DNA from: Calditrichia bacterium
GTDB taxonomy: Bacteria; Calditrichota; Calditrichia; JAJRVZ01
NCBI GenBank assembly: GCA_963796965.1
Contig: CAWCNS010000009.1
Coordinates: 585,470-649,469 of the forward strand
Direction: 5' to 3'
Length of the DNA stretch: 64,000 bases
Position 1 is the stretch's first letter. Every line of letters begins with the position of its first letter. The notes below the pieces were generated by a model. That model was not told the origin of the DNA, made no database searches, and saw nothing but the letters and a program-made list of their open reading frames with translations. This document shows, piece after piece, positions 9,845 to 52,201 of the stretch. The translations under genes were made by a program, and so were the position numbers.

Positions 9845-9851
9845 GGCTGAT

Positions 9852-32932: not shown

Positions 32933-33376
32933 ATGATTGGGAAAACGATATCACATTTCAAGATTCAGAGTGATCTTGGTGAAGGTGGCATGGGCAAAGT
33001 CTACCTCGCTCTGGATACTGAGCTTGAACGAGAGGTAGCCCTAAAATTTCTTCTTCCACATTTGACTGAAAATGAGAAAATTAACTCCCGGTTTAAGCAG
33101 GAAGCCCGCACTTTAGCAACGCTGAATCATCCTAATATAATTACAATCTATGAGGTGGGTGAATTTGAAGGACATTCCTTCATTGCAACTGAGTATGTAA
33201 AAGGTCAGAGTCTTGAAACGATATTATTCAACAAAACTTTATCTATAAAACAAATACTTGATATTGTGATGCAGCTCTGTGATGGCTTGCATGAAGCACA
33301 TGCACATGGTGTTATTCATAGGGATATCAAACCAGGTAATATTTTTATTGAAAATAACGGGCATGTAAAAATATAG
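32933..33376 (+). CDS. Ser/Thr protein kinase, N-lobe and catalytic loop (fragment; frameshift at A5 run ~33367-33371)
   Basis: GEGGMGKVYLA, VALKFL and HRDIKPGNIF motifs. A stop falls right before the DFG motif. Confidence 0.8.
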   Translation: MIGKTISHFKIQSDLGEGGMGKVYLALDTELEREVALKFLLPHLTENEKINSRFKQEARTLATLNHPNIITIYEVGEFEGHSFIATEYVKGQSLETILFNKTLSIKQILDIVMQLCDGLHEAHAHGVIHRDIKPGNIFIENNGHVKI

Positions 33377-33384
33377 ACTTTGGT

Positions 33385-34860
33385 TTGGCAAAATTAAAGG
33401 AAGCCGGAAGAAAAACCTCAACGACGACCACTCTTGGTACTTTATATTATTTATCTCCCGAACAGATACAAAATTCTACCGTTGATCAAAGGACTGACAT
33501 CTTTGCCACAGGGATTCTTTTATATGAAATGATCAGTGGACAACTTCCGTTTAGGGGTGATCATGAGGCCGCTGTGATGTATACTATCCTCAATGAAGAT
33601 CCGGAACCTTTAACCCGTTATAAATCCGGTATTTCACCAAACCTTCAAAATATTGTACTTAAAGCCCTTCGCAAAAATCCCGATGTGCGCTATCAGCATA
33701 TCGATGATCTCTTATCAGACCTGAAGAATGAGCTGAGCGAAACAGAAACCTCAACAATTTCCATAAAAAAATCTACACAAGAAAAAACAATTCGTAAACT
33801 TGCTGCCATCATGTTTACTGATATCTTCAGTTACTCCCATATGATGGGAAAGGATGAGGAGAAAGCATTTAAACTTCTTGAAGATTACGACGCAATGGTC
33901 TCACCACTTATTGAAAAACAAAACGGTCAAATTTTAAAGAAAATTGGTGATGGATTTTTCTGTGAATTCTCCTCAGCCCTGGAAGCAGTGGAATGTGCCT
34001 TAGATATTCAGAATGCATTAAACGATTATAACCTAAATCAGGGAAAAGATTTTCAATTAAAGGTCCGCATTGGCATCCATGTGGGTGATGTTATAAAAAA
34101 AGAGAATGATCTGTTTGGTGATGGTGTAAATGTTGCAGCAAGAATAGAACCCTTAGCACCTCCCGGCGGTATTTATATTTCTGATACGGCGTACTCGGCT
34201 ATCAGTAGCCATCCCAAGTTTGAGATAATAGATATCGGTCCCAGAACTTTGAAAAATATAAACAAAGCACCTACCTTGTATCAAATAGTCACCGGTTATG
34301 AGGACCCAATAGAAAAAGTCAAATCCTCTCATATCAAATCTCCCCCAAAAGCAAAAAAGATATCCACTATAAATGACCAGCAACAAAATCAGCGATTTAC
34401 TTTGCCTAGATTCGCTTGGATTGTCAGTATGGCAGTTATTATTACAGTTGTAGCCATATGGCTCTCCAACTCATCTAACTCTTCAATTTCAACACCAGGC
34501 GAACAGTCAGAAACAAATATTCAAGAAGCTATGGGTACTAAATCAAATTACCCTGAGGTTTCTAAATTGCTTGAATCTGAGAAATCTAAAAGATTTGTAT
34601 CTGACGTTTTAAAAATTGAAGATTCAAACACCTTATTAAAATATTTAAAAGAGAATAAAAACCTGGGCAGACTAACCTTTGGGAAAAAAGGTAATTATTC
34701 AGAGATAGAGGGTAAGTATGTTATTATCCTTGACGAACAGCGGATTTATTCTCTTTTGCTGTATCACGATCAAAAATATTTTGATGTCATGGGCAATGAT
34801 ATCTACGATGATCTCTCTGAAAATTTTCGAGGTAAAAGAGAAATTTGGATTGACTTGTGA
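33385..34860 (+). CDS. Ser/Thr kinase C-lobe + class III adenylate/guanylate cyclase (CHD) domain + TM segment + uncharacterised C-terminal domain (continuation of 32933..33376)
   Basis: The upstream in-frame sequence reads DFGLAKL..., followed by TLYYLSPE (APE-like). The cyclase domain is AAIMFTDIFSYSHMMG...KIGDGFFCEF...VRIGIHVGDV...GDGVNVAARIE. TM segment FAWIVSMAVIITVVAIWL. Confidence 0.8.
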   Translation: MAKLKEAGRKTSTTTTLGTLYYLSPEQIQNSTVDQRTDIFATGILLYEMISGQLPFRGDHEAAVMYTILNEDPEPLTRYKSGISPNLQNIVLKALRKNPDVRYQHIDDLLSDLKNELSETETSTISIKKSTQEKTIRKLAAIMFTDIFSYSHMMGKDEEKAFKLLEDYDAMVSPLIEKQNGQILKKIGDGFFCEFSSALEAVECALDIQNALNDYNLNQGKDFQLKVRIGIHVGDVIKKENDLFGDGVNVAARIEPLAPPGGIYISDTAYSAISSHPKFEIIDIGPRTLKNINKAPTLYQIVTGYEDPIEKVKSSHIKSPPKAKKISTINDQQQNQRFTLPRFAWIVSMAVIITVVAIWLSNSSNSSISTPGEQSETNIQEAMGTKSNYPEVSKLLESEKSKRFVSDVLKIEDSNTLLKYLKENKNLGRLTFGKKGNYSEIEGKYVIILDEQRIYSLLLYHDQKYFDVMGNDIYDDLSENFRGKREIWIDL

Positions 34861-36837: not shown

Positions 36838-38289
36838 TTGATGATGACTTCTGAAATCCATCGATATACTTTCCCTATTTTGATTTTCTTTTTCTTTTTT
36901 AGTACCTCCTTTGCTCAACAAATACTAGATGAAATGCAATTAAGTGATATTTCCGATCAGCCATCTATAAAATCTTCGGTCATACGGGATCCCAACCAGG
37001 CCTTAATAATCGTTAAAACACAGATTTCTGCTCTACGTATAGAATCAAACAATATCATTATAAAGTCAGAACAGGTGGAACCCGGAACCTGGCATATTCG
37101 GGTAGAACCCGGCACACACCGCTTGAGTTTCCAGGCTGAAGGATTTATCTCCGTTCAGCAAAGATTTTATTTTAATCCAAAAGATGTAAAAGGTGTCCAA
37201 ATACGCGTTATATCGGCAGCAGAAAAAAAGGAAGAAAAGAATTCGGGGATCATTGTCATTAAAAGCACCCCGGATAGCGCTGCCGTATATTTAAATGATC
37301 AGTTTTATGGCACTACGCCCTATCTTGGTAAAACCCTGGGCGGACAGTATAAACTGGAATTAAAAAAAGAACCTTTCCATTCCCATATCCAGCAGATCAT
37401 TATTATTCCCGGGGAGACTTTACCTGTAAATGTTGATCTCAGTGCTGATCTCGGCTCTGTAGAAATTATATCTAATCCATCCAACGCCAGAATTGAAATC
37501 GATAATCAGTATATTGGCGAGACACCTTTCACTTTCAAAAAATTGGCAAAAGGTAAACATGTCATTCAGGTGAGTTTGGAAAATTATGTGCCTTTTGATT
37601 CTGAATTTGAGATAAATAAGGATAATCTTAATCAGCGATTTAATGTTCTGCTAAAACCAAAGGAATCAATATTAAGCGTAAAGGGTTCGCCCCGGAATGC
37701 CCAAATTGAACTTAATGAGAAAAAGGTGGGAATTCTTCCCAGCGAAAAGATCAAACTGGCCTTTGGCGCTTATAATCTTACCGTAACCCAGCCAGGTTAT
37801 TATCAGTATCAAAAAAATATTGTCATCGCTTCAGGTGATCCCTATGACTTAAATATAGCATTGAGGCCAAAAAGCAAATATTCGGCCCTCTTATACTCCA
37901 CTTTGCTTCCGGGAAGTGGACAAATTTATTCTGGAAGACCAACACAAGGTATCATATTGGGTGTGGCATCCCTGGGATGTGCGGCTGTTGCCCTGGTATT
38001 TACAAGCGACTATAACGATAAAAATGAGACCTATATGGATACAAAAGCAATTTACGATAACAATACGGATCTGGGGAAGATGGACGAACTCTATCAGGCC
38101 ACCCAGGAGAGCTATGGTGAAATGGAAGATGCCCATAAACAGGCACAGCTCATGTGGGGTATTACGATTGCTGTCTGGTTATATAATATGGCCGATGCCC
38201 TTTTCTTTTTTCCGGATATTAGTGGGGTACAACTAAAAGCCAATACCCAGGCATCTTCTTCCAAACTGGTTCTGACTATTCAGTTATGA
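36838..38289 (+). CDS. PEGA-domain protein with C-terminal transmembrane segments
   Basis: At least three PEGA repeats (IKSTPDSAAVYLNDQFYGTTP; IISNPSNARIEIDNQYIGETP; VKGSPRNAQIELNEKKVGILP). Signal peptide. TM helices near the C-terminus. Confidence 0.8.
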   Translation: MMMTSEIHRYTFPILIFFFFFSTSFAQQILDEMQLSDISDQPSIKSSVIRDPNQALIIVKTQISALRIESNNIIIKSEQVEPGTWHIRVEPGTHRLSFQAEGFISVQQRFYFNPKDVKGVQIRVISAAEKKEEKNSGIIVIKSTPDSAAVYLNDQFYGTTPYLGKTLGGQYKLELKKEPFHSHIQQIIIIPGETLPVNVDLSADLGSVEIISNPSNARIEIDNQYIGETPFTFKKLAKGKHVIQVSLENYVPFDSEFEINKDNLNQRFNVLLKPKESILSVKGSPRNAQIELNEKKVGILPSEKIKLAFGAYNLTVTQPGYYQYQKNIVIASGDPYDLNIALRPKSKYSALLYSTLLPGSGQIYSGRPTQGIILGVASLGCAAVALVFTSDYNDKNETYMDTKAIYDNNTDLGKMDELYQATQESYGEMEDAHKQAQLMWGITIAVWLYNMADALFFFPDISGVQLKANTQASSSKLVLTIQL

Positions 38290-38404: not shown

Positions 38405-39007
38405 ATGAAACGTATTTATCATATCCCCATTTTCAATTTATGCTGTCTCCACATATTATTTGTCCTATTATCTGCTTTCTGGTTGAGTAATTGCAGCGAA
38501 TTACCATCCAAATCAGAAGGACCCGATAATCCCCTTGATCCAAGAAATCCAGCCAATAAAAACCAAGGGCCGGTTCTGGTTCTTTCTCCAACTCAAATCA
38601 ATGTAAATAGTGGGAATAATTTTCAATTAGAATTATGGATCGTGGGAACCGATTCTATCGCTGGTTTGAGTACCAGAATATCTTATGATCCTCAACAATT
38701 GAGTGTTGAAGAAATAGACTCCCTCGTGACAGCATCCGAATCAATTTTACTACAAAATGGCGGTCAATTGATTTTCTTTAGTAACGTCGATACGGATAGT
38801 GGTTTTATTGATATTGATTGCGCCGTTGTTGAGGGGAAACCTCGTAATATCACAGGATCCGGTATAATAACAAGAATAAATTTTCGACATCTTAGTGGTA
38901 CAAGTGAAACAAATTTGGAAATTTCAGAAAACAGTCTTTTACGTGATGATTCAAATACCGAAGTGGCTCTAGCAGATCGTATTGGCTCGCAGATAAATAT
39001 TAAATAA
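38405..39007 (+). CDS. lipoprotein with cohesin-like domain
   Basis: Lipobox FWLSNCS. AGLSTRISYDPQQLSVEEIDSL... resembles the cohesin hallmark (GFQF.L.YDP..L) also present near the C-termini of the two downstream giant proteins. Confidence 0.5.
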   Translation: MKRIYHIPIFNLCCLHILFVLLSAFWLSNCSELPSKSEGPDNPLDPRNPANKNQGPVLVLSPTQINVNSGNNFQLELWIVGTDSIAGLSTRISYDPQQLSVEEIDSLVTASESILLQNGGQLIFFSNVDTDSGFIDIDCAVVEGKPRNITGSGIITRINFRHLSGTSETNLEISENSLLRDDSNTEVALADRIGSQINIK

Positions 39008-39035
39008 GAACGGTTTTATACGAGAGAGGTGACAT

Positions 39036-39461
39036 GTGCAATTATCAAAATCCTTTATCTTCTATATTATTGTACTCTTTTTTTTAATAAAAATAACTCC
39101 GGGTCAGACATTTGAAAATATCAGCCTGGTTGGCAGATGGGCGGAAGGACCCTGTAATGCCGTATCTGTTTCAGGTAATTTCATTTATAAAGGCAGTGGT
39201 TCACTTATTTATATTCTAGACATCTCCGGCGAGGGGGATCCTCTCCCGGTGGGAGAAGTACTCTTACCTAATATCGCAAAACATATTGCCACTTTTGGGA
39301 ACAGGTTATATTTGATCGATGAAGATGAGATCCTCTATGTTTTTGATATATCAAATCCAACCACCCTCTTAGAAACTGGCTCTTTACCTCAGGGATATTT
39401 GTTGCTGATATGGTTGCACAGGGAAATTATTTATATCTGGGAAACAGTAATAACGGTTTAA
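39036..39461 (+). CDS. giant LVIVD-repeat T9SS surface protein A, fragment 1/4 (signal peptide + first LVIVD blades); frameshift at GGG ~39392-39394
   Basis: GTG start. Signal peptide MQLSKSFIFYIIVLFFLIKITPGQ. The LYLIDEDEILYVFDISNPTTL blade ends in a nonsense tail. Confidence 0.75.
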   Translation: MQLSKSFIFYIIVLFFLIKITPGQTFENISLVGRWAEGPCNAVSVSGNFIYKGSGSLIYILDISGEGDPLPVGEVLLPNIAKHIATFGNRLYLIDEDEILYVFDISNPTTLLETGSLPQGYLLLIWLHREIIYIWETVITV

Positions 39462-40690
39462 AAATATTCAATGTTTCTGATCCCACCAATATCAATGAAA
39501 TAGGAGCGCTTCCCGATCTGGATGTTCGTGATTTAGATATAAAAAATTCAAACTTGTTTGTCGCAGCGAATACGAAGTTTAGTATTGTTGATATTTCAGA
39601 TCCTGCTAATCCATCGGAAATTGCTTTTTTATCCTTTAGTGCACATGCCATAACCCTAGGGACGGATTTTGCTTACGTGGCAGGGAATAAAGCATTACGA
39701 GTAATTTCAGTTTCTGATCCATCCAATCCGTTTCAGGCAGGCATTACCAGCTATCAGGGATCTATAGATGCCATAGGATATGCTTATAATTATGTTTTTT
39801 TAGATGATTATTTTGATGCCGGAGGATATTATTTAAATACAATCCGTGCTTTTTACGTGGGAGATCCGGAAAATCCCGTGGAAACACAGTCTTTTGATAT
39901 TTCAGGAAATATCAAGGATATTTTTACAAAAGATGGTTTAGTATATACCGCAGCAGAAAATGCCGGACTGTATATCCTCAATGCTTTTGAATTTGAACAG
40001 GTATGGGATTTAGAATATTCTGAACCCTGTGCCGTAACTGTTGAGGGTAACTATGCCTATGTCGTTCAACGAACCTTTCCCAGCATATTACATATATTTA
40101 ATATTATAGATCCGGAAAATCCGGTTGAAATCGGTTCCTGCACTATCGATAATACCAGCGATTGGTTACAGGGCATAACGGTAAAAGGTCCATATGCCTA
40201 TGTCGTACAAGGTCAGTCAGGTCTGCATATTATCGATATTTCTAATCCCTCTGCACCTAGTAAAATCGGGGAGTTCAGGGATGCGTCTGAATGTCTGGAT
40301 GTGGCCGTAGAAGGTAACTATGCCTATATCGCCGGCGCAGATCACGAAACCTGGGAAAAAGGCTTGATGATTGTTGATATCTCCGATCCTGTAAATCCAT
40401 TTCTTGTCTCTCTCACAGGGAATGCCACTGCCTATGATGTAGAATTAAAGGATGGATACGCTTTTGTTAGTGGCCGTGATGGATTTCAGATCTTTGATAT
40501 TTCAGATCCTGCAAATCCTGATTCAGTTAAAACGGTAGATGATCCAACACGGGGATATGCTTTAGTCCTTGATGGCACCAAGGCCTATATTTCTACTGAT
40601 CATGGTCTATATATATATGATATTTCAGATCCGGAAAATCCATCTGGCTGGGATTTTATGGTTCCGGCTCCTATGATGGTCTTGAGGTAA
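39410..40690 (+). CDS. giant LVIVD-repeat surface protein A, fragment 2/4 (LVIVD beta-propeller repeats); frameshift at T4 ~40655-40658
   Basis: Repeated G.YAYV...GL.I.DISDP.NP units (LVIVD repeat, PF08309-like). The upstream in-frame sequence lacks a start codon and joins fragment 1. Confidence 0.75.
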   Translation: MVAQGNYLYLGNSNNGLKIFNVSDPTNINEIGALPDLDVRDLDIKNSNLFVAANTKFSIVDISDPANPSEIAFLSFSAHAITLGTDFAYVAGNKALRVISVSDPSNPFQAGITSYQGSIDAIGYAYNYVFLDDYFDAGGYYLNTIRAFYVGDPENPVETQSFDISGNIKDIFTKDGLVYTAAENAGLYILNAFEFEQVWDLEYSEPCAVTVEGNYAYVVQRTFPSILHIFNIIDPENPVEIGSCTIDNTSDWLQGITVKGPYAYVVQGQSGLHIIDISNPSAPSKIGEFRDASECLDVAVEGNYAYIAGADHETWEKGLMIVDISDPVNPFLVSLTGNATAYDVELKDGYAFVSGRDGFQIFDISDPANPDSVKTVDDPTRGYALVLDGTKAYISTDHGLYIYDISDPENPSGWDFMVPAPMMVLR

Positions 40691-40698
40691 AAGGTGAT

Positions 40699-42828
40699 AT
40701 GGCCTATCGCGCTGCTTATGATGGCCGTTTTGAAGTTTTTGATGTTTCAGATCCCAACAATATTACTGAATTTGACAATCCAAGAATGACATTCCCTTAC
40801 TATACCGTAAAATTTATGGCACTTAAGGGAGATTATTTATACTGTGCGGGGGAAAGTGATTTCCGTATTTTCAGAACCCTTAACATCACTGAGCGATATC
40901 ATCACGCTTCAGCAGATTATACAAAAAATATTACCACTTCCGGCAATTTTGCCTTTGTAGCCAATGAACAAAACGGGCTTTACATTCTGGATATAAGCAA
41001 TCCCGCCAATCCTGACCAGCATGGGTATCTTGATACCCCGGGTAGTGCAAGTAATGTGGACGTTTATGGGAACTTAGCTGGTGTTGCTGATAATAATGAA
41101 GGTTTGCGCATCATCGATATTTCTGATCCTGCCTCTCCCTATGAAATAAGTACAGCTGATACCATTGCCTATAATATTGAACTCGTTGATAACCGTGCTT
41201 ATATAGCTGGGGAAGAAGGCATGCATATCGTAGATCTCTCAAATCCTGCTTCTCCCCAGGAAATAGGATTCTTTAATGCCTATGGACGGGTTTCTGATAT
41301 TGTCGTTATGGATGATGTTGCCTACCTATGTGGAGGATCCAGTAATAATTACTTTGTTATTGTTGATATTTCTGATCCCGGAAATCCGGTTGAAGTAAAT
41401 CGTCATCTCAATAGCGGGCGAAATTTAAGTGTAAATGGTGGTTATGCTTACCTTGCCGAAGGCTGGTATGGATTTACGATTTTGGATATAAACGATCCCT
41501 ATAATATCGTTGAAGTGGGGGATTTCCCGAATAAAGTCCAGGATGTTATTGTTATTGGAGATTATGCTTGCATTACCGAAGGCTCAGATGGCTTACGGAT
41601 ATGGAACATTTCTGCCCCGCAAGCACCCGTTGAAGAAGGATATACCAATATAGGGCAAAATCTATCAGGTATAAGCCTGAATGCAGGCCATATCTACGTC
41701 GCTGATGGCGAGAATGGCTTGTATGTATTTAAAGAAGAAATACCACCCGAAAAACCGATAGATCTGCAAGCGGGAGGATCTTCACCCAGCCCCTGGCAAG
41801 CTTCACCGATTTTTGAAGTCGATTGGACCAACCCGGGGGACTTATCAGGCATCCGCAATGCTAAATTTAAATTGGGATCTCCCCCGGGAAGTAATGATGA
41901 CTTTGAGGAGATGGTGGGAGGTGAGCCCCCTTATAATATTGAAGTTTCTGAAGAAGGGATCCATCCTTTATATTTATGGGTGGTTGACAGTGCGGGCAAT
42001 GAAAATTTTGCTAACTATAATACCGTGAATTTAAGATATGACGGCTCCTGTGCCTCGCCAACTAATTTTAGGGACATTAATGAACTCGAAACGGATGTCT
42101 GGCAAAACAGTAAAAATAATGCGATCATTTCCTGGGATGCACCTTCCGATCCGGCGGGAATTGAAAAATACTATCTTTATCTTGGATCGGATCCATCCGG
42201 TACCTCCCCTTCAGATTCAACCACGGCAACCAATTCTGACGTGTCTTTTTCCGAAGGTGTCACTTATTTCCGCATTCAGGCCAAAGATAATTTAGGTAAC
42301 CCTAGCGACTGGATGACCGGTTTTATTTTCAAATATGACAAGACAATCCCCAAGGGTGCACAGGCCTCTGTTGCCGATTCATCGGCCGGCAGTTTTGTCG
42401 TCTCCTGGTCTACCGGCAGCGATGAAGGAGGGTCCGGTTTAAGCGGTATCTATGATGTCCGGTATAAAGAGGGTGAAGGTGAATGGTCGGACTGGCTGAC
42501 CGATTATAACGGCGACAATGCCGTTTTTACAGATGGAGCAGGCGGACAAACCTATTATTTTGAAGCGGCTGCCCGGGATAGTGCGGGAAATGCTGAGCAA
42601 TTCACCGAACAGGCCGAATGTTCCACTTTTGTCAGTTCACATCTGGGTACTGCTATAACCAATTTATCCGGCGAACAATCCGGTTCTATAGAAATTCATT
42701 ATACAATCTCAAATTCAGACAGTACCTCAACTGATATCAAATGTGAATATTCATTGTCGACAAGAGAATGTCTGGGATTTAGTCACTATCACTGGAAAAA
42801 CAACCAATATATTGCCGGCAAGTTATAG
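40699..42828 (+). CDS. giant LVIVD-repeat surface protein A, fragment 3/4 (LVIVD blades + Fn3/Ig-like repeats); frameshift ~42758-42770
   Basis: More LVIVD blades, then ~95-aa Fn3-like repeats (...DSAGNENFANYNTVNLRYD...; TGFIFKYDKTIPKGAQASVADSS...). The ORF finder's M is internal. Confidence 0.75.
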   Translation: MAYRAAYDGRFEVFDVSDPNNITEFDNPRMTFPYYTVKFMALKGDYLYCAGESDFRIFRTLNITERYHHASADYTKNITTSGNFAFVANEQNGLYILDISNPANPDQHGYLDTPGSASNVDVYGNLAGVADNNEGLRIIDISDPASPYEISTADTIAYNIELVDNRAYIAGEEGMHIVDLSNPASPQEIGFFNAYGRVSDIVVMDDVAYLCGGSSNNYFVIVDISDPGNPVEVNRHLNSGRNLSVNGGYAYLAEGWYGFTILDINDPYNIVEVGDFPNKVQDVIVIGDYACITEGSDGLRIWNISAPQAPVEEGYTNIGQNLSGISLNAGHIYVADGENGLYVFKEEIPPEKPIDLQAGGSSPSPWQASPIFEVDWTNPGDLSGIRNAKFKLGSPPGSNDDFEEMVGGEPPYNIEVSEEGIHPLYLWVVDSAGNENFANYNTVNLRYDGSCASPTNFRDINELETDVWQNSKNNAIISWDAPSDPAGIEKYYLYLGSDPSGTSPSDSTTATNSDVSFSEGVTYFRIQAKDNLGNPSDWMTGFIFKYDKTIPKGAQASVADSSAGSFVVSWSTGSDEGGSGLSGIYDVRYKEGEGEWSDWLTDYNGDNAVFTDGAGGQTYYFEAAARDSAGNAEQFTEQAECSTFVSSHLGTAITNLSGEQSGSIEIHYTISNSDSTSTDIKCEYSLSTRECLGFSHYHWKNNQYIAGKL

Positions 42829-44977
42829 TGGTAGTGTCTTTTGGGATTCAGATACCGATGCACCCGGAATTGACCGTAGTTTTGCTCAATTTAGAATCAC
42901 ACCTATTGATATAAAAGGAAAAGGTATCGCTGCTATAACGTCTCCCTTCCATCTGGATAACAACCAATCCCCCACTATTGTAATTGATCCTCTTGCGGAA
43001 GAACAAAGTGAAGATATTTTGATTTCCTTTCATCTTTCTGATTCTGAAAATGACACCCTGTCTATCAGAGGTGAATATTTTCATCAAGGAAGTCAGATCT
43101 GGCTGGATGCCACCTTGATTGGCGCAACTGAGCATCTTATCGATACGGATAATCAGGTCACATGGCAATCAGGCATCGATCTAAACACGGCCCTTGGTAA
43201 TTACCAAATCAGGATCCGCCCCTATGATAATGATCACGGAACAAGTGATACTTTAAGTATATTTATTGATAATGTCGGTGCTCCGGATATTTTATCCATG
43301 ACGGAACTTACGGAAGAACAGAGCGGAGATATCACGATTAATTATATTCTTGCTGATAATGAAAGGCAAACCATTAATCTGATCTGTGAATATTCTCAAG
43401 ATTCTGGCAAAACGTGGTCCTTAGCTTCTGCATCTGGGAGTGTCACCGGTATTTCATTCAGTGAATATGCCGGTTCGCTAATCTGGCATTCATCTACCGA
43501 TCTTCCCGGTGTTGACAAAACCACTGTACAATTCCGAATCACGGCTACAGACGGTAATGCCGGACGGCCAAGAGAAACGTCTGAATTTCATCTGGATAAT
43601 AATCTTCCACCAACACTTCAGATTGGTCCACTTAGGTCAGTACTATCCGGAAATATTGAGATTCCCATAACGATTGATGACACAGAAAATGATACCATAT
43701 CCGTAATAGGACAGTATAGAAAAGAAAACGAAAACTGGCAGTGGATGACATCAAGTTCCCTATCGCAGATCATACCCTCTCAGTATACCAATGCGTTTTT
43801 TTGGGATAGTAACAGTGATCTGGGAATTGGGAAATATTCACAGGTACAACTGCAGACTTTTGCTAAGGATGCTGATAGGGGGGTATCAACAGTAACAGAC
43901 ACCTTCAAAATCAAGAATTTTGCTGGTGATTTCAGTGGTGATATCTCGGTTGACTCCGAAGATCTGCAACCTTTTGCTCTAGCCTGGCGAAAGCAGGATC
44001 TTAGTAAAGAGATAGGTCCGGCCAGCGGTGAGCCACCAGATCTTATTCCGGATCCGGATGGTATCATCGATTTTGAAGACTTGATAGTGTTAGTACAACA
44101 ATGGAACTGCAGTTTTGACGGAAATCTAAGTAAACTGACAGTTGAAAGAGATTTTCAGACGACGGCAACTGAAATCACCCTAAAAACTGATGATCAGCAG
44201 AAACATATTTTATTAAACCTTGACAAAAATTTTCAAACACCTAAGCATATGACTCTTCCATCAGTCCAGACAGGCCTGATAAAAATGGCACAATCCGAAT
44301 ATGACAAATGGTCTAATAAATTTGCCGATGAATTAAATTTAGATCTGGATACCACCGCTTCTATTCTGGGCTTTCAGATTGTTCTCGACTATGATCCAAA
44401 GATTTTTACACTATCAGGTATAAATTCCAAAATATTTGATGAGCAAGATGGTATTCTTTTTAAGACTGATGATAGTGAGAATAACCACATTCTGATAGAT
44501 GCTTTTGTATTGGAATCTGAAAAAAATTTGACTGAGATCGATGGTGAATTTTTAACGATCAACATTAAAGCGCTTCAAGAAAAAAGAATAACATCAAATT
44601 TTTCCTGGATAATTTATCAGGAAGACGGAACTATTCTCAGCCAGGGCCAATCCGAAATAGATCTTGAGACTCATCGATCTGTTCCCCAAACTTTCTCGCT
44701 ATATCAGAATTTTCCTAATCCCTTTAATCCCTCAACGACCATTCGCTATCAACTACCTGATGGAGGCAAAGTCCAGCTTACGATCTTTAATATTCTCGGG
44801 GAGAAAGTACAGACACTTGTTAACGAGAATCAAAAAGCCGGCTATTATAACTACCTATGGGATGTATCGCAAAGTAAAAGCTCTATCGCCAGCGGAATCT
44901 ACTTTGTTCAATTATTGGTCAAAGGCAATGATGGAAACCGATATATAGATCATAAAAAACTTATGTTTTTGAAATAG
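42743..44977 (+). CDS. giant LVIVD-repeat surface protein A, fragment 4/4: Ig-like repeats, dockerin-like Ca-binding pair, cohesin-like domain, T9SS C-terminal sorting domain
   Basis: Dockerin-like GDFSGDISVDSEDLQPFALAW...DPDGIIDFEDLIVLVQQWN. Cohesin-like ILGFQIVLDYDPKIFTLSG.... T9SS CTD YQNFPNPFNPSTTIRYQLPDGGKVQLTIFNILGEKV...GIYFVQLLV. Confidence 0.75.
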   Translation: MNIHCRQENVWDLVTITGKTTNILPASYSGSVFWDSDTDAPGIDRSFAQFRITPIDIKGKGIAAITSPFHLDNNQSPTIVIDPLAEEQSEDILISFHLSDSENDTLSIRGEYFHQGSQIWLDATLIGATEHLIDTDNQVTWQSGIDLNTALGNYQIRIRPYDNDHGTSDTLSIFIDNVGAPDILSMTELTEEQSGDITINYILADNERQTINLICEYSQDSGKTWSLASASGSVTGISFSEYAGSLIWHSSTDLPGVDKTTVQFRITATDGNAGRPRETSEFHLDNNLPPTLQIGPLRSVLSGNIEIPITIDDTENDTISVIGQYRKENENWQWMTSSSLSQIIPSQYTNAFFWDSNSDLGIGKYSQVQLQTFAKDADRGVSTVTDTFKIKNFAGDFSGDISVDSEDLQPFALAWRKQDLSKEIGPASGEPPDLIPDPDGIIDFEDLIVLVQQWNCSFDGNLSKLTVERDFQTTATEITLKTDDQQKHILLNLDKNFQTPKHMTLPSVQTGLIKMAQSEYDKWSNKFADELNLDLDTTASILGFQIVLDYDPKIFTLSGINSKIFDEQDGILFKTDDSENNHILIDAFVLESEKNLTEIDGEFLTINIKALQEKRITSNFSWIIYQEDGTILSQGQSEIDLETHRSVPQTFSLYQNFPNPFNPSTTIRYQLPDGGKVQLTIFNILGEKVQTLVNENQKAGYYNYLWDVSQSKSSIASGIYFVQLLVKGNDGNRYIDHKKLMFLK

Positions 44978-45074
44978 AATTTATGACTTATTGTCGCTAT
45001 CATATAATGAAATTGCTGTTTCAATAAAAGATATATATCTAAAGAAAAATCTTATCAATCCCAAGGGAGTGTTT

Positions 45075-47411
45075 ATGAAAGTTTTTAAATACTCACTGGT
45101 ATTTTTCTTATCAATACTATCGAGTCTCTCAGGTCAAACATCTCAGAATGTAAATTTAATTGGTAGATGGGGGCATGGTTCCTGCCAGGCGGTATATGCG
45201 GATAGTATTCATGCCTTTATAGGTAATGGTGTTAGCTTTCAGATTCTTGATATGACTGATCCAGAATCACCCCAGGTATTGGGAGAAGTAGTTCTTCCAG
45301 AAGCAATCAAAAAGATTATCATCAGGGATAACTTTGCCTATGTGCTAACGGGACAATCTGGGGTACGCGTTGTTGATATTTCTAATTATTATACACCAAC
45401 TGAAATCACTTTTTATAAACTGCAAACCTATATTGAAGATCTGGCCATTGGTGGTAATTGTGCATATGTAACTGCCGGTGATTCCGGATTACGGATTATT
45501 GATATTTCTAATCCCCTATCTATAAATGAAATAAGTGATATTTATCCATCCGGAAGAGCCAGATTTGTTGATGTTGATGAAAACTTTGCTTATGTAAGCA
45601 TCGAATGGTCTCTCCGTGTTATCGATATATCTGATCCGTATAATCCAAGTGAAGTTGGGCATATTGATACCTGGGCATATAGAATGGATATTTCAGGAGA
45701 TTATGCTTATGTAACCAGCGGTTCATTTTCTGACCTGCACATAATTGACATATCTGATCCATCAAATCCAAATCAGATAAGTTCTGTAAATACGCCAAGC
45801 TGGGCAAATAACGTAACTGTACACGGACAATACGCCTATATTGCGAATGGTGATTCTGGGATACGTGTAATAAATATATCTGATCCTGAAAATCCCCAAA
45901 CCGTAGCATTTTATCATACACCCGATCACGCCCTGGATGTAGCAATATCCGGAAGATATGCCTATGTTGCTAATCGTGCTTCAGGTTTAAGAATAATTGA
46001 GGTAATAAATCCAACTCCTGTTGGAGCCGTAGGTCCCTTATATTATCCTCAGGATGTGACGGTGAGAGAGATTTATGCCTATGTGGCAGATCATTTGGAT
46101 GGATTGATAATCTTTGATATATCTAATCCGGCATCTCCAAATCAAATAGGCTCAACATTAACACGAGAACGCGCCCTGGGTATCACACTTGGTGAAAACC
46201 GTGCCTATCTTGCCTGTGGTGATTCAGGCCTGACGATCGTTGACATCACAAATCCGGCTAATCCAAATGTCCTTGGGGGAAAAAACACACCCGGAGATGC
46301 TGTTAACGTAGCAGTCGACGGAAATTGGGCATATGTGGCAGATCGGGGGGCCGGATTGCGTATTATAGATATTTCCAATCCTGCTAATCCGATCGAGGTT
46401 GGTTTTTTTCTTACAACAGTCGGTGTATACAGTATCGCTGTTAGAGAAAATATTGCCTACGCTGTCGACGAAATTACTGGCTTGCACATACTGGATATTT
46501 CAGATCGCTCAGATCCTGTGGAACTTGGCTCGTATAATAGTGCGGGGGACTCATATGATATCGTCGTTCACGGGGATATTGCCTATCTGGCAGATTATTA
46601 TGCTTTATGTGTTATTGATATCTCCGATCCTGCCCATCCTAACCAAATTGCCTATATACCTGTGGCTGACGAGTTAACTGATATTGCTATCGAGGGTGCT
46701 TATCTCTTTGGAGGTGGATCTGATTTGTTTGTATTTGATATCACAAATCCAGAAAGACCTCAACAAGTTGCTACTTATTCCCGTGGCTCAGCGGGCATTG
46801 CTGCTCAAGGGAATTACGCCTATATGGTGAGTGGTATCGGGGGATTCGAAATCATTGATCTAATCAATCCTGTTGAGGCTGGTATTCATCACGCAGCGCA
46901 CGAAGCCAATGGCATTGTAATAAATGAGAATTATGCCTATGTCTCGGAGGGATATTCAGGTATGCACATTCTGGATATAAGTGATCCATCCAATCCTGTT
47001 GAGATTAGTTATTTAGATACACCCGGAGGTGTTCAGGAAATAGTATTACAAGGAAATTATGCCTATGTAGCGGATAACACTTCTTTTCGTACTGTCAATA
47101 TCTCTGATCCTCTAAATCCGGTTGAATCAGGCTTTGTGTCGGTCTATGCAAATGCATTGGCTCTATCAGGAAATTACGCTTATACATCCAGCGGTCCTAT
47201 CGAGATTATTGATATTACCAATCCGGCTAGCCCTATAAATGTTGGTACCTATACTACGCCTTCCACTACCCAGGATATTGAAATACAGGATACATACGCC
47301 TATTTAGCCTGTGCTTCTGCGGGCTTACGTATTTTAAATCTTTCTAATCCAACTAATCCAGTCGAAACAGGTTATAATACGACAGCGAATAATGCCTACG
47401 GTGTACTGTAA
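45075..47411 (+). CDS. giant LVIVD-repeat T9SS surface protein B (paralogue), fragment 1/2; frameshift ~47403-47408
   Basis: ATG at 45075 with an AAGGGAG RBS. Signal peptide MKVFKYSLVFFLSILSSLSGQ. More than 20 LVIVD-type blades (YAYVANRASGLRIIEVINP..., YAYVADRGAGLRIIDISNPANP...). Confidence 0.8.
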   Translation: MKVFKYSLVFFLSILSSLSGQTSQNVNLIGRWGHGSCQAVYADSIHAFIGNGVSFQILDMTDPESPQVLGEVVLPEAIKKIIIRDNFAYVLTGQSGVRVVDISNYYTPTEITFYKLQTYIEDLAIGGNCAYVTAGDSGLRIIDISNPLSINEISDIYPSGRARFVDVDENFAYVSIEWSLRVIDISDPYNPSEVGHIDTWAYRMDISGDYAYVTSGSFSDLHIIDISDPSNPNQISSVNTPSWANNVTVHGQYAYIANGDSGIRVINISDPENPQTVAFYHTPDHALDVAISGRYAYVANRASGLRIIEVINPTPVGAVGPLYYPQDVTVREIYAYVADHLDGLIIFDISNPASPNQIGSTLTRERALGITLGENRAYLACGDSGLTIVDITNPANPNVLGGKNTPGDAVNVAVDGNWAYVADRGAGLRIIDISNPANPIEVGFFLTTVGVYSIAVRENIAYAVDEITGLHILDISDRSDPVELGSYNSAGDSYDIVVHGDIAYLADYYALCVIDISDPAHPNQIAYIPVADELTDIAIEGAYLFGGGSDLFVFDITNPERPQQVATYSRGSAGIAAQGNYAYMVSGIGGFEIIDLINPVEAGIHHAAHEANGIVINENYAYVSEGYSGMHILDISDPSNPVEISYLDTPGGVQEIVLQGNYAYVADNTSFRTVNISDPLNPVESGFVSVYANALALSGNYAYTSSGPIEIIDITNPASPINVGTYTTPSTTQDIEIQDTYAYLACASAGLRILNLSNPTNPVETGYNTTANNAYGVL

Positions 47412-50400
47412 GAGGAAACTATGCCTATATAGCAGATTTCGATGTACTTCGCATCTTTAACGTTTCCGACCCTTCCAATCCTATAGAAACAGGTGCGCTA
47501 GAAGTAAGTTGTAAACAAGTCGTTATCAGCGGTGACTATGCCTGTGTATCCCATGATTATAATTTTGATTTTCAAATTATCGACGTCTCTGATCCGGAAA
47601 ATCCACAAGTGGTCGGACAGTTTGACGAGGGATATGGGGCCCGAGGAATATCCATTGCTGGCTCTAATGTATATCTTACCCATGGACCGGAAGGTGTCTA
47701 TGTTCTTCGGGAAACTATTCCGCCATTTTCTGCCCTTAATTTAACTGCCGGAGGGAGTTCACCCAGCCCCTGGCAAAACAATCCCACTTTTTTGCTCAAT
47801 TGGCAAAATCCGGGTGATATGAGTGGTATCAATCAAGCGAAATATAAAATTGGTACTCAACCACCTTCCAGCAACAATGATTTTGCTGCATACTTGCCTG
47901 GTACTTCACCCCAGTCAATTACAGTTTCTCAGGAAGCCAATCAATCTCTCTATCTTTGGCTGGTCGATAATGCAGACAATGAAAATTATCAAAATATAAA
48001 TACTGTTGGTATTCGGTATGATGCATCTATTTCCCCCCCCACAAATTTTTTTGAGAGTCATGGCGTTGTATCCGATACCTGGCAGAACAGTACCCGTAAT
48101 CCGACATTTTCATGGACAGCCCCAACAGATTTATCCGGCATTGATAAATATTATCTATATTTCGGATCCAATCCGGGCGGTAGTGTACCAACCGACTCTA
48201 CCAGCAATATATCTTTCAGTTTTTCAGGCTCGGAAGGAACCTCCTATTTTCGGATTCAAATGAAAGATAATGCAGGGAATATCAGCGCCTGGACTACGGC
48301 GTTTATCTTTAAATATGATAATACGGTTCCTGTTAATCCTTTACAAGCAACAGAAGTTGGCGGAGCAAGTTCTGATGTCTGGCAAGCGGATGTTGCCGAT
48401 CCCAATTTTACATGGAGTGGCACTTCAGACATTCTCTCCGGAATCGCAAAATACTGGATCTATATGGGGCCAGATTTGGATGGAGAACCGTTTATTGAAA
48501 GTACAACCCCTACATTCAATCCGGGTCCGTTTACAAATGGTACATATTATTTGCGTGTGATGGTGGAGGACGCGGCTGGTAATCTCTCACCCCCTAAAAC
48601 TCTATTTATCTTTAAACATGATGCCATACCCCCAGAGAATCCAACAGATTTTAGTGATATTGTCGGCTCTGAAAATAATATTTGGCAAAATACGGTCAAT
48701 GATCCGAATTTCTCTTGGAATCCCGGGAATGATCCACTCTCAGGAATTCAAGCTTATCAATACTATTGGGGGAAAGATCCCAATGGGATATCTGATAATA
48801 TGGTGATGTCTCCCAGTTATAATCCCGCACCGGCCGATACGGGTAGTTGGTATCTTCGGATTAGTACAATCGACAGAGTATCCAATGCTTCGGCCTGGAT
48901 CACTGCTTATATCTTCAAATATGATAATATCGCCCCCCATGTTATTGCTGCCTCTAATGATACCAGTGGATATCTTAGCTTTACTGTCAGCTGGGTAAAT
49001 GGAACTGACCAGGGTGGATCAGGAATAGAGTACTATCATATACGCCTCAAAGAAAATGAAGGAGAATGGGTAGACTGGCAAGTTAATACATCCAATATAA
49101 GTGCCCTTTATACCGGAGAGCACGGTCAAACCTATCATTTTGAAGCGACAGCCATTGATAAAGCCGGTAATGTTGAAAGTTTTTCAAACCTGACTGAAAC
49201 ATCAACCTATATAGATACGCTGACAACAGATATGATTGCTCCGGGTAAACCCATTAATCTGCTCTCAAAAGGTAGCGATCCCAGTCTTTGGCAGAATTTT
49301 CCCCAATTTGAATTGAATTGGACGAATCCGTTTGATGAAAATGGTATTGCCCACGGCTATTATAAACTGGATAGTCCTTCTAGCTCAACCAATGACTATG
49401 ATGGTTCTGTTGGTGGCACTCCACCTCAAACAGTTGTTATTAATAAAGAGGGCGGTCAAAATGTATATCTATGGTTGGAAGATGGACGAGGGAATGTAGA
49501 TTATCATAACTACGATTTTATTGAATGTCGCTATGACTCAACGCTACCACGCGGCGCTCAGGCCAGTTCAGCCGATACAAGTGTCACCGCCTCCTTTCTG
49601 GTTAGTTGGTCAGGAGCCACTGATGAGGGCGGGTCGGGGATCTCTGGTCGTTATGATATAAAAGTGCGTGATAATCAGAGTGCCTGGTCCTATTGGCTGC
49701 AAGACAGTCTTTGTACGAATGCCTATTATCTGGGTGAACAAGGTCATACCTATTATTTCGAAGCAGCTGCACGGGATGATGCCAAAAATATTGAAGTTTT
49801 TACCCGTCAACCCGAATGTTCTACCTATATCGGAACCCGCTTGGCCATTTCCCTTTCATCCCTGTCAGGAGAACAATCCGACGATGTCTCATTCAATTAC
49901 ACCATTTATAATTTTGAAAACAATCTTACCAGCTTAGCATGTGAATACTATTCCCTTTCTGATAATGCCTGGCAATCAGCGACCATGACAGGGAATGTTA
50001 CAGATATTCAGCCTCAGGATTATAGCGGTACCCTGGTTTGGGATTCATATACAGATCTGCCCGGTCTTGATTGTGAGAACATGCGTTTTAAAGTAACACC
50101 ATTGGATTCAAAAGGGAATGGACTTGCCGACTCCACCTACTTTTTTCATCTGGATAATAACCGTATCCCCTCTGTGCACTTAGATCCCCTCATAGGCGAG
50201 AGAAAAAATGATATTACTGTTTCCTATTACTTAAAGGACATGGAAAATGATACGATATCGCTCGTATGTGAATATTACAACCCGCTCAGCCAGTACTGGT
50301 TTCAAGCCACTACTACAGGGAATCTATCTGATATATTAAACTATGATGGTACTATCACATGGAAATCATACACAGACCTACCTGGTACAGCAGATTCAAT

Positions 50401-52201
50401 CAAATTCCGGATCCAGCCATCTGATACTGATCCGGGTACAGCCGACACAATTATAATAAATCTGGATAATGTGGGCGCGCCCGATGTCTTATCGATCAGC
50501 CAGTTGGATCAGGAACAGAGCGGGAATATTGATATTAAATATGTCCTCGCCGATGACCAGGGCGATAGGGTCAATCTGATTTGCCAATATTCAGATAATT
50601 CTGGTAGTCAATGGAATCTGGCCTCTGTCTCAGGTACCACAGCAAATATTTCACAGTCTGACTACACAGGTTCGATCATATGGCAATCAAATAACGATCT
50701 GCCCGGTGTGGATAAAACAACGGTTCGATTTAAAATTACCCCAAACGATGGTCATGCCGGAACAGCATTAGCCACCAATGATTTTCATCTGGACAATAAT
50801 CTTCCCCCTTCTATACAGATTGGTCCAATAAATTCACCGCTGTCTGCTAACATTGACCTGCCCATTTCGATCCAGGATTTGGAACAAGACACAATATATA
50901 TAATGGGTAAGTATTCAAAAAAAAACGGGATCTGGAAAAAAATGAAGTTTACAGAGTTACCCCTGCAAAATAAAAATAATTATACGGATACGCTCTACTG
51001 GCAAAGCCTGCATGATTTGGGATACGGAAAACATGAAACGATCCAGATCAATCTATACCCTGCTGATAATGATACGGGAATTAGTGTTCAATCAAATTCA
51101 TTTAATGTATATAATAAAGCCGGCGACTATACAGGCGATTTTAATATTAACTCAGATGACCTTCCAGCTTTTGCTTTGGCCTGGAGACAGCAGGATCTCA
51201 GCAAAGAAATCGGACCTTCGGATCCCGCTACTACTCCAATCCCGTATCTGATACCCCAACCCGATGGAAAGATAGACTTTGAAGATCTGATGGTATTAGT
51301 GCAACAATGGAATTTTTCCTATAAATATCCCAATTATTTCAAAGTTAGTAATAACCAAAGATCCAAAAAGGCCCAGGCTAAAATAAATTTACAAATGGAT
51401 CAAAAAACCACCCTCTTGTTAAATGAACCTATTTTTATTCCAGAAAGAAATGAATCTGTTAGTCTTAAAAGTTCTCATTTAGTCCACCTCATACAATCAG
51501 ATTATGATCAATGGGCTAATAAACTCGGCAATGAGCTTAGTATTAAACTTGATTCATCAGTCTCTATACTTGGCCTGCAAATTGAAATTCAGTATGATGC
51601 CGGCTCCTTTTCTTTTACTGGCCTGGAAAATAAATTTCTCAAGGAGCAAAACGGCCTTACCTTTGAAATTAATGACACAAAAGAGGGGTTTTATTGTCTA
51701 AATACCTTTGTATTAGATGAAAAAAAACCCAACCATTTATCCGGAGAACTTTTACGATTCAAAATTGAAGCCTCAAAGGAGGCTACCTCTTCTATATCCT
51801 ACCAATGGAAGATATACGCGAGTGATGGACGCATTCTTTCAGAGGGTGTAGACATGTTTGATATAGATGTGCATCCAACAAAACCAACCCATTATGCCTT
51901 ATATCAAAACTATCCCAATCCCTTTAATCCGGCAACAACAATACGCTATCAATTACCTGTTGATGGAAAGGTGCGCTTGGATATTTTCAATATTCTTGGA
52001 GAACGCGTCACAGAGATCGTCAATCAAAATCAACCCGCCGGTTATTATAATCAAATCTGGGATATTTCGGAGAATTCTCGAACGGTAGCCAGTGGAATTT
52101 ATTTTGTGAGACTTCTCATTTCAGGTAAGGATGGTTCGCGATATGCAAATCACAAAAAGTCTGATTTTGTTAAAATAGTAGAGATCATAATGGAATGTTA
52201 A
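47402..52201 (+). CDS. giant LVIVD-repeat surface protein B, fragment 2/2: remaining blades, Fn3/Ig-like repeats, dockerin-like pair, cohesin-like domain, T9SS CTD
   Basis: Frame 2 is open from ~47402 (...VRGNYAYIADFDVLRIFNVSDPSNPIE...). ORF-track M at 47609. Dockerin-like GDYTGDFNINSDDLPAFALAW...QPDGKIDFEDLMVLVQQWN. Cohesin-like ILGLQIEIQYDAGSFSFTG. CTD YQNYPNPFNPATTIRYQLPVDGKVRLDIFNILGERV...GIYFVRLLI. Confidence 0.8.
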   Translation, partial: CTVRGNYAYIADFDVLRIFNVSDPSNPIETGALEVSCKQVVISGDYACVSHDYNFDFQIIDVSDPENPQVVGQFDEGYGARGISIAGSNVYLTHGPEGVYVLRETIPPFSALNLTAGGSSPSPWQNNPTFLLNWQNPGDMSGINQAKYKIGTQPPSSNNDFAAYLPGTSPQSITVSQEANQSLYLWLVDNADNENYQNINTVGIRYDASISPPTNFFESHGVVSDTWQNSTRNPTFSWTAPTDLSGIDKYYLYFGSNPGGSVPTDSTSNISFSFSGSEGTSYFRIQMKDNAGNISAWTTAFIFKYDNTVPVNPLQATEVGGASSDVWQADVADPNFTWSGTSDILSGIAKYWIYMGPDLDGEPFIESTTPTFNPGPFTNGTYYLRVMVEDAAGNLSPPKTLFIFKHDAIPPENPTDFSDIVGSENNIWQNTVNDPNFSWNPGNDPLSGIQAYQYYWGKDPNGISDNMVMSPSYNPAPADTGSWYLRISTIDRVSNASAWITAYIFKYDNIAPHVIAASNDTSGYLSFTVSWVNGTDQGGSGIEYYHIRLKENEGEWVDWQVNTSNISALYTGEHGQTYHFEATAIDKAGNVESFSNLTETSTYIDTLTTDMIAPGKPINLLSKGSDPSLWQNFPQFELNWTNPFDENGIAHGYYKLDSPSSSTNDYDGSVGGTPPQTVVINKEGGQNVYLWLEDGRGNVDYHNYDFIECRYDSTLPRGAQASSADTSVTASFLVSWSGATDEGGSGISGRYDIKVRDNQSAWSYWLQDSLCTNAYYLGEQGHTYYFEAAARDDAKNIEVFTRQPECSTYIGTRLAISLSSLSGEQSDDVSFNYTIYNFENNLTSLACEYYSLSDNAWQSATMTGNVTDIQPQDYSGTLVWDSYTDLPGLDCENMRFKVTPLDSKGNGLADSTYFFHLDNNRIPSVHLDPLIGERKNDITVSYYLKDMENDTISLVCEYYNPLSQYWFQATTTGNLSDILNYDGTITWKSYTDLPGTADSIKFRIQPSDTDPGTADTIIINLDNVGAPDVLSISQLDQEQSGNIDIKYVLADDQGDRVNLICQYSDNSGSQWNLASVSGTTANISQSDYTGSIIWQSNNDLPGVDKTTVRFKITPNDGHAGTALATNDFHLDNNLPPSIQIGPINSPLSANIDLPISIQDLEQDTIYIMGKYSKKNGIWKKMKFTELPLQNKNNYTDTLYWQSLHDLGYGKHETIQINLYPADNDTGISVQSNSFNVYNKAGDYTGDFNINSDDLPAFALAWRQQDLSKEIGPSDPATTPIPYLIPQPDGKIDFEDLMVLVQQWNFSYKYPNYFKVSNNQRSKKAQAKINLQMDQKTTLLLNEPIFIPERNESVSLKSSHLVHLIQSDYDQWANKLGNELSIKLDSSVSILGLQIEIQYDAGSFSFTGLENKFLKEQNGLTFEINDTKEGFYCLNTFVLDEKKPNHLSGELLRFKIEASKEATSSISYQWKIYASDGRILSEGVDMFDIDVHPTKPTHYALYQNYPNPFNPATTIRYQLPVDGKVRLDIFNILGERVTEIVNQNQPAGYYNQIWDISENSRTVASGIYFVRLLISGKDGSRYANHKKSDFVKIVEIIMEC

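Follow-up and report, generated by a model that had tools for sequence, protein, structure and literature searches.

We describe a locus of an uncultured sediment bacterium of the Calditrichia (GenBank assembly GCA_963796965.1, contig CAWCNS010000009.1, positions 585,470 to 649,469) in which a predicted lipoprotein carrying a cohesin domain is encoded upstream of two giant, tandem, paralogous genes, A and B. The products of both giants end in the same cassette, composed of a dockerin-like module, a cohesin and a type IX secretion system (T9SS) C-terminal sorting domain (CTD). The stretch analyzed covers 64 kb of genome and is referred to here as the window; all coordinates are window positions. 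A preliminary description of this DNA had proposed a non-cellulosomal cohesin-dockerin surface system on top of T9SS. This reading, in which the cohesin of the lipoprotein would bind the dockerin-like module of the giants, remains the best supported one because of the identity of the domains and the conserved synteny, and we give it about an even chance of being correct; what did not hold up to the same degree is the dockerin assignment, which is borderline. The conserved pairing of a cohesin "socket" with a giant suggests a previously undescribed way to attach or link giant adhesins at the cell surface. The features on which the argument rests are the following.

38405..39007, + strand: cohesin lipoprotein gene, open reading frame (ORF) of 200 amino acids (aa)
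38591..38983, + strand: cohesin domain of the lipoprotein, residues 63-193 (Pfam Cohesin)
39036..44977, + strand: giant gene A, four overlapping or abutting ORFs, reconstructed product 1980 aa
39123..41706, + strand: gene A LVIVD beta-propeller region, about 20 units of 41-42 aa
41707..42651, + strand: gene A middle beta-sandwich modules of Ig/fn3/OmpL47 type, about three of about 100 aa each
42652..43909, + strand: gene A stalk, four tandem repeats of about 105 aa, also present in the family consensus
43904..44125, + strand: gene A dockerin-like module, from an AlphaFold (AF2) model and a PDB profile search
44255..44683, + strand: gene A cohesin domain
44711..44977, + strand: gene A T9SS type-A CTD (TIGR04183, PF18962)
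45075..52201, + strand: giant gene B, two ORFs (44991/45075-52201), reconstructed product 2375 aa
45162..47715, + strand: gene B LVIVD region, about 20 units (Pfam LVIVD, 15 stretches)
51101..51331, + strand: gene B dockerin-like module, 64% identical to that of A
51470..51895, + strand: gene B cohesin domain, aligning with that of A
51896..52201, + strand: gene B T9SS type-A CTD (TIGR04183, PF18962)

The cohesin lipoprotein and the two giants

The cohesin domain of the lipoprotein matches Pfam Cohesin (PF00963) with 29.7 bits against a gathering cut-off of 24.1 (E 8.6e-7, profile positions 6-132 of 139), and nine of 19 lipoprotein homologs matched the same family at E<=0.01, with no other family matched. 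A signal peptide and a lipobox cysteine at residue 30 (38492-38494; window sequence ...AFWLSN-C30) predict a lipoprotein. This cysteine is at least 90% conserved in the alignment of 19 sequences, where G, A or S usually comes before it, and 14 Marinimicrobia homologs have it too; the N at position -1 in the window lipoprotein is atypical. A conserved D-N-P-L-D-P motif follows the cysteine. The lipoprotein with a cohesin-like domain that had been described at these positions is therefore confirmed, both by the Pfam match and by the lipobox.

Two further observations concern the N-terminus of this protein. A [DN]-N-P-[LFI]-D-P motif lies within some 8-15 residues after the lipid-bearing cysteine (38492-38545 in the window) in the window family and in the 14 Marinimicrobia homologs, and may be a sorting or attachment signal of the lipoprotein family. 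The signal peptides of the window lipoprotein (38405-38491) and of its counterpart on the metagenomic contig L002 (306-392) are unrelated, while the two proteins are near-identical from the lipobox cysteine on and the DNA homology of the two genes begins at 38491, suggestive of a breakpoint, through either recombination or assembly, exactly where the signal peptide gives way to the mature protein.

The cohesins of the giants are more divergent at the level of single sequences. That of gene A scores 19.3-23.3 bits, below the Pfam gathering score, and that of gene B is not matched by Pfam Cohesin; relatives in the same alignment reach E values of 1e-14 to 3e-17. The modeled C-terminal domain of the giants has the cohesin fold, and by fold together with family transitivity we take these domains to be real cohesins. 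An enlarged alignment of the lipoprotein cohesins matched the cassette cohesins with an hhalign probability of 98.4% (E 8e-15), and because of this link all three cohesin calls in the window are sound, that of the lipoprotein by profile hidden Markov model (HMM) and those of the giants in spite of a score below the cut-off in A and no match in B. As the model of the giants' cohesin has the fold, the same link lends indirect support to a nine-stranded jelly-roll beta-sandwich in the lipoprotein. Profile searches of the PDB with two small alignments returned nothing significant, the best match of the lipoprotein being a cohesin at E 0.29.

The dockerin-like module of gene A consists of a first loop (GDFSGDISVDSEDL) and helix, a linker reading EIGPASG..P.L, and a second loop (IPDPDGIIDFEDL) and helix. 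It was modeled by AF2 with a predicted local distance difference test score (pLDDT) of 90-97, with helices at residues 18-30 and 57-71, each after a 12-residue loop. Loop 1 (D9-D20) carries D/S/D/D/D at the EF-hand/dockerin positions 1, 3, 5, 9 and 12; in loop 2 (I48-D59), D is retained at 5, 9 and 12, the residue at position 1 is I, and position 3 is not conserved across the family. When a profile of 56 diverse family segments was compared with the PDB, the top 12 matches were all dockerins (E 1.4e-3 to 0.05), and dockerins made up most of the 27 matches obtained (E 1.4e-3 to about 1). Across the same 56 segments D20, P39, P45, D52 and D59 are invariant and D9, W28, G38, G42, W67 and W69 nearly so, and the motifs EIGPAxG and PDGxIDFEDL and three tryptophans are invariant or almost so; the linker motif EIGPAxG..P.L is absent from canonical dockerins. 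Pfam Dockerin_1 matched 18 of the 56 segments (E<=1, best 2.2e-5), and one relative, P0157, carries besides the cassette a canonical Dockerin_1 (40 bits) directly before a Cohesin (35 bits). The module is probably a divergent pair of dockerin-type F-hands, and we refer to it as dockerin-like rather than as a demonstrated dockerin.

Ahead of the cassette, both giants carry a signal peptide, as read from their sequences, and an LVIVD region in which a DISxPxxP motif recurs every 41-42 residues from about residue 30 to 890. Pfam LVIVD (PF08309, cut-off 20.2 bits) is passed with 36.5+180.5+179.1 bits in A and 433.6 bits in B, so that the LVIVD repeats of the preliminary description are strong; the number of blades, given there as 20-40, is about 20 in each protein. 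The middle modules of A gave weak fn3 and NF047446 matches and are paralogous to residues 1077-1380 of B. The Ig-like repeats measure about 100-105 aa, and four conserved copies form a stalk directly before the dockerin-like module, with the motif E-x-S-G...C-E-Y-S...W...W-x-S-x-x-D-L-P-G...D-N-N-x-P-P. These stalk repeats (42652-43909 in A and the 50xxx region of gene B) had no Pfam or NCBIfam match; they are kept before the cassette across the family and appear to constitute an unclassified family of Ig-like repeats. At the other end, the match to the CTD spans the last 90 residues or so, and both giants are above the cut-offs of TIGR04183 (23 bits; 30.3 in A, 32.2 in B) and PF18962 (27 bits; 29.9 in A, 30.5 in B), which confirms the assignment of the CTD. 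Pfam and NCBIfam scans revealed no catalytic domain in either protein.

The two reconstructed products are clearly paralogous: residues 983-1980 of A and 1360-2367 of B are 45% identical and the LVIVD halves 35% identical, both at E = 0. With the frameshifts bridged, all parts previously described for the tandem pair were found again. Gene B begins with the ATG at 45075, preceded by an AAGGGAG motif. Reading the junctions in all three frames placed three single-base indels in gene A, near 39395 (-1), 40646 (-1) and 42763 (+1), and one single-base deletion in gene B, near 47406, and at each junction the protein sequence resumes in another frame after the single-base shift. L002, which is 88% identical to the window in nucleotide sequence over gene A, contains an uninterrupted ortholog of A of 1983 aa, 83% identical over its full length, and in comparison with it the indels of the window gene are likewise single bases. 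Two unrelated upstream genes (32906/33358 and 35827/36059) are split in the same manner in the window and are single ORFs in contig L003. The frameshifts in A and B are probably assembly errors, which is the economical explanation because the ortholog of A is intact and unrelated neighbors are split alike; on the same grounds the alternative that A and B are pseudogenes was rejected.

Altogether at least six genes are split by single-base frameshifts within about 20 kb (32906-53784), at sites near 33358-33373, 36059-36192, 39395, 40646, 42763, 47406 and 53224-53339; beyond the giants these are a kinase-cyclase gene, a conserved hypothetical gene and a sulfatase-like gene with a CSPSR signature. 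The ORF pair 25813-27309/27233-28075 is a possible further case. Such a density of frameshifts points to an error-prone assembly and not to pseudogenes.

Conservation of the pairing and of the cassette

A direct search with the lipoprotein recovered a family of 20 proteins, all metagenomic, and on every contig that was long enough the order was PEGA/DUF5683 protein, lipoprotein, large protein. On L002 the cassette is complete; on contigs L003-L009 the downstream gene ends at the contig end, before the cassette. For an independent view of the pairing, GTDB was scanned, with one genome per species, using patterns taken from the cassette of the giants only. This gave 29 loci, most of them labeled as metagenome-assembled genomes of Marinimicrobia, Neomarinimicrobiota or Fidelibacterota; the others are unclassified or oddly named, including one Ignavibacteriota label and one "Bacteroides sp. 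SM23_62". In 15 of the 29 loci the giant with the cassette has just upstream, in the same orientation, an ORF of about 300 aa that the lipoprotein HMM matched (E 2e-30 to 2e-11). The other 14 have no readable upstream region, as the ORF of the giant reaches the contig start or is preceded by apparent fragments, so that a lipoprotein homolog was found at 15 out of 15 readable loci. A scan of the genome collection with a pattern from the lipoprotein itself found no relative, and these distant homologs appeared only through the loci fetched with the giants and the HMM. All 15 have an additional Ig-like domain of about 100 aa followed by the cohesin, and 14 of them show the lipobox cysteine and then N-P-[FLI]-D-P as in the window, the fifteenth (L023) being cut at the contig start. 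The preliminary description had named the absence of such a pairing from related genomes as the finding that would speak against it; the pairing is kept.

The cassette itself is general, and the clusters that carry it are mostly from Marinimicrobia/Fidelibacterota. A word-indexed homolog search with it returned three proteins, and an exhaustive search of cluster representatives was used instead: a profile of the dockerin-like module and cohesin matched 675 representatives at E<=1e-3 and 292 at E<=1e-10. Among the 150 matches listed, protein lengths range from about 300 to 4700 aa, and in nearly all full-length proteins the dockerin-like module begins 300-360 residues from the C-terminus; among short cassette members 42 out of 54 matched a T9SS tail. 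As heads, 38 full-length members that were sampled carry, among others, LVIVD, FG-GAP and PQQ-type propellers, ASH/HYDIN Ig domains, PKD, beta-helix, BNR and Reelin-B. The most frequent heads (propellers, Ig-like, PKD, beta-helix and BNR) are non-catalytic, and enzyme-like heads are isolated cases, such as P0077 with its PcRGLX domains. The system had first been described as a feature of LVIVD proteins, and this did not stand, the same C-terminal cassette being found behind many other heads.

L002 illustrates the exchange at close range. The gene that follows its ortholog of A has an FG-GAP_2 propeller head in place of LVIVD and middle repeats 61% identical to those of B, so that the LVIVD head is one interchangeable option. 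The second giants lie at L002 7136-10908 and at 45075-52201 of the window, and nucleotide homology of L002 to the window ends where gene A ends, which looks like head replacement by recombination. The diversification that had been suspected at this locus is in this respect supported, since the second gene of a close relative bears FG-GAP in place of the LVIVD head.

The genes around the pair are also partly conserved. Two features of the window belong here.

32906..34860, + strand: Ser/Thr-kinase and nucleotide cyclase gene, split by a frameshift (Pfam Pkinase, Guanylate_cyc), start of the conserved cluster
36838..38289, + strand: PEGA/DUF5683 protein (Pfam PEGA 134 bits, DUF5683 31 bits), directly upstream of the lipoprotein

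The PEGA/DUF5683 protein occupies the same position in L003-L009, L011, L012 and L016. A nucleotide cyclase is found upstream of the lipoprotein in nine Marinimicrobia loci (L024 3-1724 and eight more), the upstream cyclase being a kinase-cyclase in the lineage of the window and a CHASE2-cyclase in Marinimicrobia. In L027, the one locus tested, the region downstream of the giant encodes a response regulator with a PglZ domain (8996-10600), and ORFs of similar size follow the giant in several other loci. These neighbors hint at cyclic-nucleotide control of the locus. In seven Marinimicrobia loci (L027, at 1587-2759, L023, L024, L026, L031, L033 and L038) a sulfatase-like gene of the formylglycine-generating-enzyme (FGE) family lies between lipoprotein and giant; in the window a sulfatase-like gene (52248-53784) follows gene B.

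Readings of the locus

In the best-supported reading, the locus encodes a cohesin socket anchored by lipid and, with it, one or several giant surface proteins exported by T9SS, each of which would consist of a variable beta-propeller head on an Ig-like stalk followed by the fixed cassette with its calcium-binding dockerin-like module, cohesin and type-A CTD. The giant would be exported first by Sec and then, via its CTD, by T9SS. At the outer membrane its dockerin-like module would plug into the cohesin of the lipoprotein and so form a non-covalent membrane tether. Its own cohesin would be left free for a second cassette protein, such as the paralog B, to insert its dockerin-like module, and short chains or a lattice could result. 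In this scheme the identities of the domains are shown (firmly for the cohesin, for the dockerin only as dockerin-like), as are the lipobox, the CTD, the conserved pairing of the genes and the variability of the heads, and we infer the binding, its calcium dependence, the orientation of the lipoprotein and the processing of the CTD.

Several relatives argue for binding in trans. In P0158, encoded on L039 (13-6069; 2018 aa), cohesins of the lipoprotein subtype, six to seven in number, alternate with thrombospondin type-3 (TSP3) calcium-binding repeats, and a second multi-cohesin protein follows it (L039 6200-9502). Neither has a dockerin-like module, and both look like partners of the scaffoldin type. 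On L040 (5675-7612) a CarboxypepD_reg/BACON protein of 645 aa has at its C-terminus a cohesin of the lipoprotein subtype in full length (E 7e-31); it is encoded two genes downstream from a cassette giant that itself begins with a canonical cohesin (63.6 bits). It is these multi-cohesin proteins without the module, together with the L040 cohesin, that carry the argument. In P0077 and P0147, cohesins of the lipoprotein subtype flank the dockerin-like module on both sides. In pairwise comparisons over 17 loci, identity averages 45% among dockerin-like modules, 33% among lipoprotein cohesins and 20% among the cohesins in cis; as all three modules track phylogeny (Spearman 0.61-0.77), this comparison is suggestive only. 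The values fit a conserved, shared partner of the dockerin-like module better than its co-evolution with the fast-evolving cohesin of its own chain, but the argument is a weak one.

A number of points weigh against binding of the module to the lipoprotein. Small calcium-binding modules tend to stay conserved whatever their partner, which weakens the argument from conservation. Loop 2 lacks acidic ligands at positions 1 and 3. Gene A has no Pfam Dockerin_1 match, only EF-hand_8 at E 0.028, and gene B reaches 14.1 bits against a gathering score of 22.9 (E 0.057, not significant). The calcium-binding loops reported earlier appear as two loop-helix units whose top PDB profile matches are dockerins, while the expected HMM match to dockerin (PF00404) was not obtained in A or B. 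The AF2 model of the lipoprotein, made from the alignment of 19 sequences, has a pLDDT of 47, too low for a fold search. Finally, a cohesin of its own is present in every cassette, and AF2 gave the cassette segment a predicted template modeling score (pTM) of 0.82 despite a disordered linker of 44 residues, so the dockerin-like module may pack on its own cohesin in cis.

This last possibility leads to the alternative that survives best, although we think it unlikely: an intramolecular clasp, in which the dockerin-like module would bind the cohesin of the same chain to form a rigid C-terminal pedestal before the CTD, with the lipoprotein cohesin being a paralog that has another ligand. The two modules always occur together and, in nearly all full-length proteins among the matches listed, at the fixed distance from the C-terminus given above; the model of the three-domain segment agrees with a clasp, and the linkers, of about 25-60 aa, are long enough for binding in cis. 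Against this stand the much faster evolution of the cis cohesin compared with the dockerin-like module (20% against 45% identity), and the fact that a clasp would leave the conserved cohesin-only lipoprotein and the multi-cohesin proteins without a partner.

The binding in trans that we prefer could be carried further. Since every giant has a dockerin-like plug and a cohesin socket, the giants could daisy-chain head-to-tail into a polymer that needs no scaffoldin, with the cohesin-only lipoprotein as its terminator and anchor in the membrane. We hold this extension to be quite unlikely, more so than the clasp. If true, it would be a new type of T9SS-dependent surface fiber or lattice with exchangeable heads, in the abundant and almost uncultured Marinimicrobia/Fidelibacterota (SAR406) and their relatives, and the lipoprotein would be functionally akin to the anchor subunit of a pilus.

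Less probable again is a role in export, in which a periplasm-facing outer-membrane lipoprotein would hold the giant by its C-terminal cassette or deliver it to T9SS, much as dedicated partners of PorP/SprF type serve cargo with type-B CTDs. Such an adaptor would suit the tight pairing, within an operon, of a single giant cargo with a single small protein targeted to the outer membrane, and the cassette directly adjoins the CTD. In many homologs, however, acidic residues lie no more than two positions from the lipid-bearing cysteine, a pattern which in Bacteroidota favors surface export and may do so in this phylum; to our knowledge, moreover, all known cohesin-dockerin pairs act outside the cell.

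Slightly more doubtful still is the view that there is no specific pairing at all, and that the dockerin-like segment is a spacer of EF-hand type stabilized by calcium and the cohesin a generic beta-sandwich of the stalk, the lipoprotein being co-transcribed for unrelated reasons or having arisen by local duplication. Dockerin_1 is indeed below threshold in A and B, and EF-hand families match 19 of the 56 segments, about as many as Dockerin_1 does. The near-invariance of EIGPAxG, PDGxIDFEDL and the three tryptophans nevertheless exceeds what a spacer needs, the synteny is kept across a phylum, and P0157 has canonical Dockerin_1 and Cohesin domains in the same arrangement.

For Cloacimonadota a cellulosome-like complex of enzymes that degrade polymers has been proposed (PMC8542988). 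Such a complex is very improbable here and was rejected: cohesin and dockerin-type modules do occur with a CTD anchor and the family does include a multi-cohesin, scaffoldin-like protein, but A and B have no catalytic domain and the commonest of the sampled heads are non-catalytic, those resembling enzymes being isolated.

If the binding of lipoprotein and giant is real, it would explain how very large adhesins with swappable heads are displayed in a nearly uncultured marine and sediment phylum. The compact, conserved module of about 75 aa and its partner would then be directly testable in vitro. The cassette also supplies a practical rule for annotating at least 675 protein clusters, in which this region is now without a domain call.

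Comparison with known systems

Cohesin-dockerin pairing is the textbook glue of Gram-positive cellulosomes; in this diderm lineage, giant T9SS cargo seems to have a divergent version of it incorporated at the C-terminal end, alongside a dedicated lipid-anchored cohesin. Among the closest known systems are the anchoring scaffoldins of Clostridia (SdbA/OlpB/OlpC; PDB 4dh2, 5k39, 1ohz), which are cell-surface cohesin proteins binding a dockerin. They are anchored by SLH domains or sortase, whereas here the predicted attachment to the outer membrane of a diderm is through an N-terminal lipid; the cargo here is a non-catalytic, giant, adhesin-like protein that would be exported by T9SS and has a cohesin of its own; and the dockerin-like module has diverged, its second loop being degenerate and its conserved EIGPAxG linker unique. 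Non-cellulosomal modules of this kind were reportedly surveyed by Peer et al. in 2009 (cited in PMC8542988). They include the GH84/GH33 toxin complexes of Clostridium perfringens (PDB 2vo8, 2w1n, 2ozn) and a cohesin of Archaeoglobus fulgidus (2xdh), none of which is linked with T9SS, a partner lipoprotein or an invariable C-terminal cassette whose head can be exchanged.

Our literature searches found no cohesin-dockerin system described for Marinimicrobia or for LVIVD proteins, and a related idea only for Cloacimonadota (PMC8542988). There, Candidatus Stygibacter has been credited with a putative cellulosome-like complex of dockerin-bearing enzymes and a multi-cohesin scaffoldin with a CTD (PMC8542988). 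Like the bacterium of the window it belongs to the Fibrobacteres-Chlorobi-Bacteroidetes (FCB) group and combines cohesin and dockerin modules with a CTD of T9SS type for surface attachment. Its dockerins are canonical and sit on enzymes, and its many cohesins on one scaffoldin (PMC8542988). In the window, by contrast, there is one dockerin-like module and one cohesin per non-catalytic giant, plus a cohesin lipoprotein in the same operon.

The cargo of T9SS in Bacteroidota offers the other comparison. Type-A CTDs are cleaved there with linkage of the cargo to anionic lipopolysaccharide (A-LPS), and cargo with type-B CTDs is encoded with adjacent PorP/SprF-like partners. What the window has in common with these systems is the C-terminal sorting domain, adhesin-like cargo of giant size, and a small envelope protein that is encoded next to the cargo as its dedicated partner. 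The partner here is a cohesin lipoprotein and not a PorP/SprF beta-barrel, and the proposed attachment would be from protein to protein, via the dockerin-like module; if this binding is real, it would be an alternative or a supplement to the A-LPS attachment of T9SS substrates.

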